Shown here piece after piece: positions 328 to 4,207 of a DNA stretch of 4,417 nt; positions within the stretch are counted from its first letter, which is position 1; every line of letters begins with the position of its first letter. The DNA is from a virus. Its lineage: Duplodnaviria; Heunggongvirae; Uroviricota; Caudoviricetes. The position numbers were made by a program, and so were the translations under genes. The stretch lies in IMG/VR virus record IMGVR_UViG_2529292873_000012, one strand, 5' to 3'. The notes below the pieces were generated by a model. It was not told the DNA's origin. It worked only from the letters and a program-made list of their open reading frames with translations, and did no database searches.

Positions 328-1322
328 GTGACCGTGAGAGCGCTACTGACCCCTGAAATTGCCCCGCGTATGGGGATCGTCTTGTTCAGACCCGGTTCAG
401 AGCTGATGCCCCTGTTTATGCAGGGGCGTGTCCTGCTGGAGCCTGAGCCGGAACGTTATTCATCTTTCGCCAGTGGTGCCGTTCCGGCAGCATCACAACC
501 GCTGGCGGATGATCCTGCCGTTCGGGCCGTGTTCCGCCATGAGGCGGTGATCCGTCGTGCTGGTGGCGTGGAATGCCTTGAGAGCTGGTTACTTCGTGAA
601 AAAGGCTGCCAGTGGCCTCATTCCGGATGGCACAGCGAGAACATGACCACAATGCGACACGCGCCGGGCGCAATCCGTCTGTGCTGGCACTGCGATAACC
701 TGCTTCGCGATCAGTTCACGGAACGTCTGGAGTCAATGGCAACGGATAACTGTGCCCGCTGGGTGTTGTCCGTAGTCCGTCGTGATCTCGGTTTTGATGA
801 CAGTCACGTTGTGACAATGCCTGAACTGTGCTGGTGGCTGGTTCGTAATGACCTGGCGGATGCCTTACCGGAAAGTGCAGCCCGTAAGGCCCTGAGATTA
901 CCGAAGCCTGTTGTGCCGTCTGTCACCCGGGAGAGTGACCTTGTGCCTTCGGTTCCTGCCACCAGCATTATCCAGGATAAAGCGAAAAAGGTGCTGGCGC
1001 TGAAAGTGGATCCGGAGTCGCCGGAGTCTTTTATGTTACGCCCAAACGTCGCCGCTGGGTTAATGAAAAGTACACGCGCTGGGTTAAGACACAGCCGTGT
1101 GCATGTTGTGGAAAGCCCGCTGATGATCCCCACCACCTGATAGGCCACGGTCAGTGTGGAATGGGTACAAAAGCGCATGACCTTTTTGTGTTGCCTTTGT
1201 GCAGAAAGCATCACGACGAGCTGCATGCGGATACCGTGGCATTTGAAGAGAAGTATGGCTCCCAACTGGAGCTGATATTTCGTTTTATCGATCGCGCGCT
1301 GGCAATTGGCGTACTGGCGTAA
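328..1322 (+). pseudogene. ydfU: YdfU/DUF968-family prophage protein, disrupted: body in frame +1 (328..1140), conserved C-terminal Cys/His motif in frame +3 (981..1322)
   Basis: Frame +1 ORF of 270 aa (CWHCDN motif) ends at TGA 1138-1140. Frame +3, open from 981 after TAA 978-980, encodes …FYVTPKRRRWVNEKYTRWVKTQPCACCGKPADDPHHLIGHGQCGMGTKAHDLFVLPLCRKHHDELHADTVAFEEKYGSQLELIFRFIDRALAIGVLA* ending at TAA 1320-1322, 13 nt before the Q start. The two frames overlap between 981 and 1140. Start is ambiguous (GTG 328, GTG 334 with GAGG at 325-328, or ATG 370). Confidence 0.55.
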
Positions 1323-2088: not shown

Positions 2089-2119
2089 ATGGTTTTCGCC
2101 GAAGATGACGACATGATGC

Positions 2120-2160
2120 TTGCATTTTTCAAAAAATATGGATAAGATTTTCCCAACGAT
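2120..2160 (+). promoter_or_regulatory. Late promoter pR'-like with sigma70-dependent pause element (qut region)
   Basis: -35 TTGCAT (2120-2125), 17-nt spacer, -10 TAAGAT (2143-2148), predicted start near 2155. The initial transcribed sequence AACGATGGG (2155-2163) matches the lambda pR' pause-inducing -10-like element as I recall it. Confidence 0.5.
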
Positions 2161-2195
2161 GGGCTTTGTATACCCGACGTTAAGAAAAAGTAGAA

Positions 2196-2221
2196 AACCC
2201 GCTGATGAGCGGGTTTTGTGC
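2196..2221. terminator. Rho-independent terminator, bidirectional: tR'-like for the short pR' transcript and terminator for the convergent cspF-like gene
   Basis: Stem CCCGCT (2198-2203) / AGCGGG (2208-2213), loop GATG, followed by TTTTGTGCTTT on + and preceded by an A-run (GAAAAAGTAGAAAA) that gives a T-run on the - strand. Confidence 0.7.
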
Positions 2222-2509
2222 TTTAAATGGGGCAATGGTAATGTTGAATCTCATCCCGGGACTCATGTCTGTTAACTTATTATTTAGCTGGTGACTTGGT
2301 TATTTGCCTGATGTTTAAAATGTTTTCTTCCAGTACAATGTCCCTAAACACAATGAGTCTGCTTATTATATTATTAGCAGAGCTATTACGGCCAAAGTAC
2401 AGCATAAGCTTTTAAAGCCAATCAACCAGTCATCAAGACAGACGGGGTTATTCATAAAAACTCTCCATGTGTGATCCGATGGGGCCTGAAATTAAAGCTT
2501 TAATATAGC

Positions 2510-2722
2510 TCATGAAAGGTAAACATTGGCAGCTGAAGGGCCACGCAGACCATTTATCCGGCAAAATTCCACGCGTAATCCGGTGGTAATTTCTTCTGCA
2601 TCGCGGAGATTGAGCGCTGAAACATGAAGCTGGACATCGATACGACCATCGGATGGGGTGATAAGACCCTTGCCGCTTTTGCCGTCAAAGGTTTTGACAA
2701 TTCCTGTCATTTTACGGGACAA
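2510..2722 (-). CDS. cspF: Cold-shock-like protein, CspF/CspH subfamily, 70 aa
   Basis: Translation [27 protein letters not shown]…[21 protein letters not shown] matches the CspF/CspH subfamily from memory. Divergent from the cspB-like gene as in Qin. Predicted start is TTG (2720-2722 on +) with AAGGA 7 nt upstream; an in-frame ATG lies 4 codons downstream. Stop TGA. Confidence 0.85.
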
Positions 2723-2826
2723 AAAAATTCCTTAATACTGATAACTTGGCGCACTATACACACGTTCCTGAAGAAAGCTATAGTTTTTTGATGGGGTTGA
2801 AGATGGCTGGATGTCTAAAATAAACA

Positions 2827-2861
2827 TTGCTTCATATGTTCAACTATGCGTTAATGATTGC
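2827..2861 (+). promoter_or_regulatory. cspB-like promoter (CspA-type, extended -10)
   Basis: -35 TTGCTT (2827-2832), 17-nt spacer, TGcGTTAAT extended -10 (2847-2855), comparable to cspA TTGCAT / TGgCTTAAT. Predicted start near 2862 gives a leader of about 161 nt. Confidence 0.5.
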
Positions 2862-3022
2862 GTCGGTTTGAAGAACAGACGATATACGAAGTAGTTTACT
2901 AAAGCAGTTCTCATTTCAGGTGTTATTCACTTATTCCTTCTTTGAGTCTCTCCAATTAAGTACGAAGTCGTTTCTGTTATGCAAACCATTTATGCCGAAA
3001 GGCTCAAGTTAAGGAATGTAGA
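2862..3022 (+). promoter_or_regulatory. Long cspB 5' leader with cold-box-like and upstream-box elements
   Basis: GGTTTGAAGAACAGAC (2866-2881) resembles the cspA cold box GGTTTGACGTACAGAC; AAAGCAGT is conserved; the GCCGAAAGGC upstream box (2995-3004) precedes the AAGGA SD (3011-3015). Confidence 0.6.
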
Positions 3023-3238
3023 ATGTCAAATAAAATGACTGGTTTAGTAAAATGGTTTAACGCTGATAAAGGTTTCGGCTTTATTTCTCCTGTTGATGGT
3101 AGTAAAGATGTGTTTGTGCATTTTTCTGCGATTCAGAATGATAATTATCGAACCTTATTTGAAGGTCAAAAGGTTACCTTCTCTATAGAGAGTGGTGCTA
3201 AAGGTCCTGCAGCAGCAAATGTCATCATTACTGATTAA
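3023..3238 (+). CDS. cspB: Major cold-shock protein CspB-like, 71 aa
   Basis: [71 protein letters not shown] carries the RNP1/RNP2 motifs (KGFGFI, VFVHF); AAGGA SD 7 nt upstream; stop TAA 3236-3238. Confidence 0.9.
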
Positions 3239-3518
3239 AATTCATCGCTCGTCTGTATACGATAACGAAGAAGGCTGATGCCTGAGTAGAGATACGGACA
3301 GAGTAGTGAATATTGGATCTCTTTAATAAAAAATAAGGAGGTCCAATACATGAAACAATGGCTAGCATATTTGGCAAAATCTTAATCAGGAAAAGTATGC
3401 TAACCATTGTGGTGAAGTGCAGGTTTGCTGCATGAATAGTTTTACAGCAGAAGCTAACTGCTGGCATGGCAAAACAAAGTGCGTAAGTGGATGACTCCCA
3501 CAAAAAGCACCACAATCT

Positions 3519-3545
3519 CAAACCCGCTCAGGCGGGTTTTTTATT
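3519..3545. terminator. Rho-independent terminator (strong on +, weaker on -) between cspB-like and the zinc-ribbon gene
   Basis: Stem CCCGC (3523-3527) / GCGGG (3532-3536), loop TCAG, then TTTTTTATTAT; preceded by CAAA. Nearly identical in stem and 3' context to the terminator at 2196-2221. Confidence 0.7.
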
Positions 3546-3601
3546 ATCTGCTTTAAATATATTATTAAAATATAAAAAATACTTGTTACTAATAAAATCA
3601 A

Positions 3602-3772
3602 TCAGGCTACAGCTTTAAGATTTGTCTGGAATACTTTGTTGCAATGAGGGCAGATCAAAAGGGCACCTTTTTGTACTCTTGAAAAACTGTGTTCTGACTC
3701 TTGGGTGCAGTTTGGGCAGGAACATTTAACGAGATAATTACGGCGTGATTTTGAGTTTTTACGTTCTGACAT
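3602..3772 (-). CDS. ynfU: Small zinc-ribbon protein (YnfU-like), 56 aa
   Basis: MSERKNSKSRRNYLVKCSCPNCTQESEHSFSRVQKGALLICPHCNKVFQTNLKAVA has two CxxC pairs. The ATG at 3770-3772 (- strand) has AGGA 7 nt upstream; the longer track ORF starting at 3823 has no SD. The symbol is from recollection of a 56-aa zinc-binding protein in Qin and is tentative. Confidence 0.55.
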   Translation of the reverse strand: MSERKNSKSRRNYLVKCSCPNCTQESEHSFSRVQKGALLICPHCNKVFQTNLKAVA

Positions 3773-3991
3773 AGGCTTTTCCTGTATAAATGGCCGTATA
3801 CAGTACACTAAATATGAAAACATTTCTCGTATTATTATTTTATATATGACTTTCTTTCAAAATAATTACCCACATTTTTAATGTGTATGTTTTTTTAGCG
3901 CCGTTGAGAACAACGTGTGCTGTCAAAACTACCCCGTAGACTCCGATCTTTTCAAACATATTGCACCATCCGTGTACATCGGGGTGAGGAT

Positions 3992-4207
3992 ATGAAATCA
4001 ATGGATAAGTTAACAACAGGTGTTGCCTATGGCACATCGGCGGGTAATGCTGGTTTCTGGGCATTGCAGTTACTCGATAAAGTAACTCCGTCACAGTGGG
4101 CTGCAATCGGTGTGCTGGGTAGCCTGGTTTTTGGCCTGCTGACGTATCTGACAAATCTTTATTTCAAGATTAAAGAAGACAGGCGTAAGGCTGCGAGAGG
4201 AGAGTAA
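3992..4207 (+). CDS. essQ: Class II holin / pinholin, phage 21 S-like, dual-start motif, 71 aa
   Basis: [71 protein letters not shown] is very close to phage 21 S21 as I recall it. GAGGA SD at 3986-3990; two in-frame starts (ATG 3992 and ATG 4001, Met1 and Met4); stop TAA 4205-4207. The track ORF from 3917 is an unsupported N-terminal extension. Confidence 0.85.

Follow-up and report, generated by a model that had tools for sequence, protein, structure and literature searches.

The 3' tail of cspB mRNA in a Qin-type prophage of Escherichia coli is predicted to be a modular structured RNA and is probably untranslated

The DNA analyzed here (the window; 4,417 nucleotides, nt) is a segment of a Qin-type lambdoid prophage of Escherichia coli. 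Our subject is the interval that follows the stop codon of the cold-shock gene cspB and ends at an intrinsic terminator common to cspB and the convergent gene ynfU. Within this interval lie a textbook Shine-Dalgarno (SD) sequence and an 11-codon open reading frame (ORF), which an initial annotation, made from the sequence alone, had put forward as a possible micro-protein, leader peptide or part of a small RNA (sRNA) derived from the 3' untranslated region (3' UTR). Positions 3239-3560 match O157 strain 493/89 at 100% identity and K-12 at 99.7%, and this stretch is present in 1640 of 5426 complete E. coli genomes. Coordinates in K-12 (NC_000913.3) are obtained by subtracting the window coordinate from 1644577. 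The cspB-ynfU interval carries no annotation in NC_000913.3, though the same record holds the small proteins YnfU and YnfS. As modeled by RNA folding, the cspB 3' tail is a modular structured 3' UTR of roughly 300 nt, composed of the hairpins H1 and H2, a linker, the hairpin H3, a four-way junction and the terminator. The features of cspB, its tail and the gene that faces it are as follows.

2862-3254, plus strand: cspB 5' UTR and coding sequence, matched by the cspA thermoregulator family RF01766 (158.8 bits, E = 1.2e-42)
3023-3238, plus strand: cspB coding sequence, taken from the ORF listing and annotated in K-12 and O157 strain 493/89
3240-3311, plus strand: H1, a long hairpin directly after the cspB stop codon, minimum free energy (MFE) -25 kcal/mol
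3311-3348, plus strand: H2, a hairpin of 14-15 bp with arms AUUGGAUCUCUUUA and UAAGGAGGUCCAAU and an 8-nt A-rich loop
3348-3354, plus strand: single-stranded linker ACAUGAA containing the ATG and the dominant RNA 3' ends; probability of being unpaired, P(unpaired), 0.93
3350-3385, plus strand: 11-codon ORF with its stop codon, judged fortuitous
3355-3410, plus strand: H3, a 17-bp hairpin, MFE -19 kcal/mol
3406-3516, plus strand: four-way junction, with P1 at 3406-3414/3508-3516, P2 at 3417-3422/3428-3433, P3 at 3445-3450/3458-3463 and P4 at 3487-3490/3498-3501
3520-3545, both strands: bidirectional intrinsic terminator, common to cspB and convergent ynfU
3602-3772, minus strand: ynfU, encoding a validated zinc-ribbon small protein of 56 amino acids (aa), annotated in K-12 and O157 strain 493/89

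The tail as a whole (3239-3548, 310 nt) is predicted to fold with an MFE of -105.2 kcal/mol and is far more stable than its shuffles (z = -7.7), a property that the initial annotation had overlooked. Its first part, 3239-3353, reaches -43.2 kcal/mol (z = -6.7). H2 alone has an MFE of -18.3 kcal/mol (z = -7.5), which falls to -23.8 kcal/mol at 15 °C, and none of 200 shuffles was as stable. Also missed in the initial annotation was that the SD forms the 3' arm of this 14-15 bp hairpin. The SD itself, AAGGAGGT at 3335-3342, was read in the sequence as had been described, and its match to the 3' end of 16S rRNA in fact extends over 9 nt (TAAGGAGGT, 3334-3342). The 7-nt spacer (CCAATAC), the ATG at 3350-3352 and the ORF of 11 codons (MKQWLAYLAKS, with a TAA stop at 3383-3385) were likewise confirmed. 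In a partition function computed for the whole cspB mRNA, P(unpaired) of the SD is 0.002 at 37 °C and 0.000 at 15 °C, which is not that of an accessible ribosome-binding site; that of the ATG is 0.97. Forced opening of a ribosome-sized site (3330-3366) would cost about 26.5 kcal/mol. Since the 5' arm of H2 is transcribed ahead of the SD arm, sequestration of the SD should be immediate. That an SD of this strength is rare by chance, as had been argued in the initial annotation, is a weak claim: for the 8-mer the expectation is 0.08 per window, and 15 of 200 shuffles held at least one, while AGGAGG with an ATG 5-10 nt on was found in 28 of 200 shuffles (14%). The 5' arm of H2, UUGGAUCUCUUUA (3312-3325), resembles the 3' end of 16S rRNA, UUGGAUCACCUCCUUA, with the 7-nt UUGGAUC in common. 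H2 looks on sequence like an SD paired to a mimic of the anti-SD, a likeness that may merely follow from complementarity.

Mapped RNA 3' ends in K-12 were taken from the Term-seq data of Adams et al. 2021 (eLife, PMC7815308, supplementary file 1), which cover strain MG1655 in three conditions at 37 °C. Our coordinate register was verified with the tR' terminator (1642356 = window 2221) and with sgrS. The dominant ends in the tail, from cultures in lysogeny broth (LB) at two optical densities (OD) and in M63, are these.

LB, OD 0.4: K-12 1641226, minus strand, window 3351; 604,404 reads
LB, OD 2.0: K-12 1641224, minus strand, window 3353; 1,233,565 reads
M63: K-12 1641224, minus strand, window 3353; 2,464,295 reads

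All of these ends are classed as "orphan" by the authors, and same-strand comparators in their data have about 57,000 reads (cspB 5' UTR end), 55,000-123,000 (tR'), 304,673 (rpsT terminator) and 976,436 (sroA) (PMC7815308). The ends sit on the ATG, 3-5 nt past the H2 stem, which is the arrangement of a protective hairpin, a stable stem-loop with RNA ends a few nt downstream. At 37 °C the dominant K-12 species therefore stops on the ATG and does not contain the ORF. H2 has no U-tract behind it, so that 3351-3353 is most simply a processed end. A scan of the plus strand from 2785 to 3838 for consensus promoters found no internal promoter for an independent sRNA. The terminator described in the initial annotation is present: a terminator scan gives a stem (3520-3527/3532-3539) whose 8 pairs include 5 G-C pairs, and a T-run comes after it. 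At this terminator no minus-strand 3' end is listed for the three 37 °C conditions; the sole Term-seq entry there is 1641060 on the plus strand (window 3517), an end of the ynfU strand (PMC7815308), on which the terminator is in use. The suggestion that the SD and ORF are part of a 3' UTR-derived RNA is right in so far as a conserved structured RNA does lie here, although the discrete RNA that it predicted, with an end near 3545, is not among the curated 37 °C Term-seq ends of the cspB strand.

Conservation of the SD and the ORF was assessed in 25 distinct sequences of the Qin type. Changes in the ORF comprise L5P, which is common, W4stop, A9V, K10I, S11T and S11P, with no synonymous change among them; neither purifying selection on the peptide nor conservation of ORF, start and SD together was found. 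The SD occurs as the variants AAGGAGAT, which strengthens the pairing of H2, and AAGGCGGT. The loop of H2 is hypervariable, three of four arm variants still pair, and the 5'-arm changes C3319T and C3321T give U.G pairs. A Qin-related lineage (L079/L138) is without SD, ORF and H3 and keeps H1 and the junction. In other genera, ATT stands in the position of the ATG and there is no SD-like motif; the position of H2 is taken by unrelated hairpins in the phage-plasmid Cyrano and in L139, and by weak ones in the remaining lineages. The SD is restricted to the Qin type, and this pattern of variation is that of a structural spacer rather than a gene. The conservation in related regions by which a micro-protein might have been recognized is absent, the peptide changing, the segment being lost in one lineage and SD and ATG being missing in other genera. 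No homology was found between the region of the mini-ORF and the small genes downstream of cspI (ymcF-like, ynfR, ynfN), the supplement of Stringer et al. 2021 lists no ORF in the K-12 range 16408xx-16412xx, and our literature search found no report of either a cspB 3' UTR RNA or the 11-codon ORF.

The distal part of the tail is conserved far more widely. A BLAST search for distant matches to 3404-3546 gave 81.6% identity after an unannotated csp gene in Cyrano and about 90 E. coli plasmids, and in phage PHB10, again behind a csp gene, the identity was 75%. When one genome of each species was scanned by pattern, 28 loci came to light in nine named genera of the Enterobacteriaceae (Escherichia, Shigella, Kosakonia, Enterobacter, Phytobacter, Kluyvera, Superficieibacter, Raoultella and Leclercia) and in a few contigs of metagenome-assembled genomes, including Pseudescherichia and Atlantibacter, and a scan of viral contigs gave more than 120 further matches. 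RNAalifold predicts 25 pairs for the junction, arranged as a closing stem, P1, and the hairpins P2-P4. Across 29 distinct sequences, 97% of the pair cells hold standard pairs and 9 of 26 pairs are changed on both sides, with each helix contributing. The covariation score was reached by none of 500 shuffles, and in controls with slid partners the pairing falls to 22-61%. G.U pairs are frequent (3417.3433 is such a pair in 20 sequences), which fits an RNA made from the plus strand. The initial annotation had noted two hairpin-prone segments and overlooked that they are P2 and P3 of this conserved junction: GCAG-GTTTG-CTGC was correctly placed at 3419-3431, whereas CAGCAG-AAGCTAA-CTGCTG is real and lies at 3445-3463, not at 3456-3474.

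Other modules show conservation of their own. The outer stem of H1 has compensatory changes in 8 of 10 pairs (RNAalifold, 17 sequences from several genera), and the H3 core GGYYAGC / GCURRCC is conserved across genera. The changing outer pairs of H1 surround a strongly conserved internal loop, CGAUAACGAAGAAGG / CCUGAGUAGA. In this loop (3260-3292) AGUA faces GAA, an arrangement that resembles the sarcin-ricin or loop-E motif, and by analogy the loop could be a candidate protein-binding site. In the junction, the P3 loop AAGCUAA has a P(unpaired) of 0.99, and the J3/4 strand AAAGUGCGUAAG (3476-3487) is conserved with a P(unpaired) of 0.69. When pairing targets of these two strands were sought locally, within the cassettes of five lineages, only the trivial self-antisense match was found. 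The cloverleaf shape of the junction raised the thought of a tRNA- or tmRNA-like element, which was rejected, as ARAGORN finds nothing and the linkers are unlike those of tRNA. ACAAU occurs twice in the tail, at 3355-3359 and 3512-3516, and AUUGU at 3406-3410 could pair with either copy. The full-length MFE structure has the base of H3 (ACAAUGG / CCAUUGU) outcompeting P1, which is reduced to 4 bp, and the modeled fold may hold a Qin-specific structural switch. In Raoultella lignicola (L018, about 4455-4560) a tandem (AAAGCCTG)n expansion takes the place of the junction sequence that separates P2 from P3.

A covariance model finds exactly one copy of the junction per locus, at 104-162 bits; it detects no paralogs near other csp genes, and none near cspI. 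The stop codon of a csp gene lies 120-220 nt upstream of the junction in 133 of 135 copies, and in 110 of the 135 a convergent ORF encoding a ynfU-like zinc ribbon (CxxC...CxxC) follows downstream on the opposite strand. Both compensatory change in helices (the junction and H1) and a consistent genomic context, as expected of an Rfam-type family, were therefore found. In Rfam 15 (4227 families, E <= 1), H1, H2, H3 and the junction have no match; the only hits are the cspA thermoregulator, whose match stops at the start of the cspB 3' UTR, and two sub-threshold ones that rest on the terminator. Besides having no Rfam match, the junction is unannotated in K-12 and is absent from the literature searched.

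We consider it probable that the region is an untranslated, structured 3' tail of cspB mRNA in which the 11-codon ORF is fortuitous and H2 protects a processed 3' end. The ORF can be understood as a by-product of structure, because its SD is the 3' strand of H2, its ATG falls in the one exposed linker and its next seven codons (codons 2-8) are the 5' strand of H3; its stop codon lies in the H3 loop. Transcripts would be cut in, or trimmed back to, the linker between H2 and H3. This could take place through RNase E cleavage within the exposed AU-rich linker, through 3'-to-5' exonucleases that stall 3-5 nt beyond H2, or through both. In that case H2 would protect the 3' end as a cap, and the stable RNA that remains would have H1-H2 at its end. 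Most likely, H2 defines the stable processed 3' end, and the abundant species could be cspB mRNA or just a fragment of its 3' UTR. The junction is the most conserved module and presumably forms the functional heart of an RNA that acts in cis or is released.

Several points weigh against this interpretation. The Term-seq data were obtained at 37 °C only, and cspB is cold-induced; low-level or cold-induced translation of the ORF may occur, and most copies of the Qin type retain the SD, the ATG and the stop codon. An internal promoter or non-canonical termination may lie behind the abundant species. Covariation in H3 is not significant, though 90.6% of its cells are paired in 18 distinct sequences. 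The patterns by which most copies of the junction were gathered demanded the P3-loop and J3/4 motifs, so that the invariance of these motifs is in part ascertainment; an independent scan anchored on P1 and P2 found both motifs in 49 of 49 copies and added little diversity.

That the ORF is translated into a functional micro-protein, MKQWLAYLAKS, is what the 9-nt SD, the 7-nt spacer, the unpaired ATG and the in-frame stop would suggest, and the same prophage region holds the validated small proteins YnfU and YnfS. We nevertheless judge it very improbable. The SD is buried in a stem of 14-15 bp whose opening costs 26.5 kcal/mol, the peptide is altered by W4stop, L5P, K10I, A9V and S11T/P with zero synonymous changes and lacks any counterpart in related lineages or in other genera, and the ATG is severed from its ORF at the dominant RNA 3' end. 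The ORF is also unannotated in NC_000913.3 and has no entry in the corresponding range of Stringer et al. 2021, and 14% of shuffled windows contain an SD core with an ATG by chance. Translation might matter for its effect on the RNA instead of for its peptide: by melting H3, a ribosome on 3350-3385 would release CCAUUGU to complete P1, making the ORF a Qin-specific, leader-like regulatory ORF. This proposal, which we find improbable if slightly less so, draws on the position of codons 2-8 in the 5' arm of H3, on the competition that leaves P1 with 4 bp, and on the retention of SD, ATG and stop in most Qin-type copies although the peptide changes. The sequestered SD and the 3'-end data count equally against it, however; moreover, a variant at L044 cuts the ORF to 3 codons, another at L051 weakens the SD, and L079/L138 and all other genera manage without the ORF. 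The leader peptide of the initial annotation fares no better, since the ORF lies in the cspB 3' UTR with no co-oriented gene to be regulated before the terminator common with convergent ynfU. Leader or attenuator systems have an ORF in the 5' leader of a regulated gene and alternative terminator and antiterminator hairpins, and this is not what was found here. The Trp_leader match in Rfam, which rests on the terminator, reaches merely 21.7 bits against a gathering score of 41.

A further explanation concerns the distal part and is compatible with the favored one upstream, namely that cleavage in the linker frees a 3' UTR RNA of about 195 nt (H3, junction and terminator; about 3352-3545) that would act in trans through its exposed loops or by binding protein. 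A cut at 3351-3353 would create its 5' end, the junction covaries strongly and exposes its conserved motifs in the P3 loop and J3/4 (0.99 and 0.69 unpaired), and an intrinsic terminator stands behind the junction in the Qin type, Cyrano and L011. We regard it as rather doubtful, since the K-12 Term-seq at 37 °C lists no 3' end of the cspB strand at the terminator and conservation of the terminator does not extend to most other genera, and since a search of the cassette gave no conserved complementary site and one of the literature no report of such an RNA. The conserved core has also been read as protein: the PHB10 annotation has a hypothetical protein of 41 aa here, and a frame with conserved cysteines (...C.E.Q.CCMNS..AEANC...) is open through P1-P3 in several lineages. 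A small Cys-rich peptide is nonetheless hardly credible and was rejected, because in Cyrano, L017, L023 and L022 the frame is interrupted by 1-nt indels that leave the pairing intact. There is also no conserved start or SD, the frame in the window opens solely from a GTG at 3417, and compensatory changes and G.U pairs suit an RNA and not a coding sequence.

Beyond the untranslated tail as such, we propose tentatively that H1, H3 and the junction (about 270 nt) make up an undescribed family of functional structured RNA. This family would travel on a mobile cold-shock cassette (cspF / cspB with the RNA / ynfU / ynfN) in prophages, phage-plasmids and islands of the Enterobacteriaceae, and processing at the H2-H3 linker would divide its RNA into two parts, both stable. 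The junction would bind protein or act in trans in cold adaptation or in the interplay of phage and host, and one product in K-12 would be the abundant unannotated RNA that ends at 1641224-1641226. The order of this cassette, a cspF-like gene (minus strand), a cspB-like gene with the RNA (plus), a ynfU-like gene (minus) and an ynfN-like gene (plus), is conserved (L004-L032; Enterobacter, Kosakonia, Kluyvera and others).

The cassette is also found outside lambdoid late regions, and in PHB10 and the Enterobacter loci it adjoins genes for an integrase and an SOS-response peptidase. In Cyrano (OV696614, L003 2631-2846), an SSU5-like phage-plasmid, the unannotated csp gene lies between hicB and dnaE, and behind it come H1, a differing H2, H3 and the junction; the same stretch is found in the approximately 90 E. 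coli plasmids. An antisense ORF of 97 aa spans the whole 3' UTR (window 3228-3521, minus strand; L005 2490-2765; L155 1490-1729), and the records of phages PhiR42_1 and PhiR63_1 annotate it as a hypothetical protein. This ORF is unconserved outside the Qin type and probably spurious.

The remaining features of the window are listed below in order of position.

328-1140 and 1161-1322: ydfU-like (DUF968) gene, first in gene order, in two ORFs
1336-2088: quuQ/ydfT
about 2198-2221: tR'-like terminator
2366-2455, minus strand: ynfS, annotated in K-12
2510-2722, minus strand: cspF
3982-4207: essQ

The middle of the ydfU-like gene (window 328-1322) is a divergent allele relative to O157 strain 493/89, with a 1-nt gap near 1040, and it shows the window overall to be non-identical to that strain. 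Since the gene is split in two ORFs and has this divergent middle with its gap, it is a mosaic, probably with a frameshift. The tR'-like terminator lies directly 3' of quuQ/ydfT (window 2100-2221), and K-12 Term-seq places an end at 1642356 on the minus strand (window 2221) with 55,000-123,000 reads. This suggests that a short pR'-tR' RNA is made constitutively here, in analogy to lambda 6S RNA or StxS.

For annotation, our analysis carries a caution: a textbook SD with an ATG can be a by-product of RNA structure, and small proteins should therefore not be called without checks of accessibility and conservation. In E. coli K-12 itself, the cspB 3' UTR appears to contain a structured RNA of several domains that is conserved and unannotated and has a processed 3' end of very high abundance. 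Should the junction be functional, it would add a 3' UTR layer to the control of cold-shock genes, so far studied almost wholly through 5' UTR thermosensors, and a conserved RNA cargo to the mobile csp cassette.

Among known systems, the STAB-SD of Bacillus cryIIIA is an SD in a 5' leader that stabilizes RNA by binding 30S subunits and does not start translation. The SD-like sequence of the cspB tail is similarly strong and probably does not serve a real gene, yet it is paired intramolecularly, lies in a 3' UTR and is found in one lineage only. YnfU (56 aa) and YnfS (29 aa) come from the same prophage region and were themselves found as short unannotated ORFs; in contrast to the 11-codon ORF, they are both annotated and conserved, with ynfU-like genes in 110 of 135 cassettes. 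The cspA thermoregulator RF01766 resides in the same mRNA as the tail (2862-3254), whereas it is confined to the 5' UTR and coding sequence up to the start of the 3' UTR, and the tail modules fall outside it. Small RNAs derived from 3' UTRs include CpxQ, SroC, DapZ and RaiZ. The cspB RNA resembles them in following a stop codon, in having the terminator of the mRNA in common, in its exposed conserved motifs and in the processing site upstream. It differs in that K-12 records at 37 °C show no stable species with its end at the terminator, and in a junction that is far more structured than typical seed-bearing sRNAs. Repetitive extragenic palindrome (REP) or terminator-like hairpins at the 3' ends of bacterial mRNAs stall PNPase and RNase II. 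H2 is like these protectors in its stability and in the abundant 3' ends 3-5 nt downstream, and unlike them it has no U-tract and contains a full SD; the part that exonucleases or RNase E would play here is putative. Decay of cspA mRNA is reportedly initiated by RNase E through a site in its 3' UTR. There, as in the cspB tail, the transcript is a cold-shock csp mRNA and the processing site is placed in an exposed AU-rich stretch of the 3' UTR between structured elements. RNase E would be a candidate enzyme here; the cspB tail is set apart by its length of about 300 nt and by its multiple, conserved and covarying domains.

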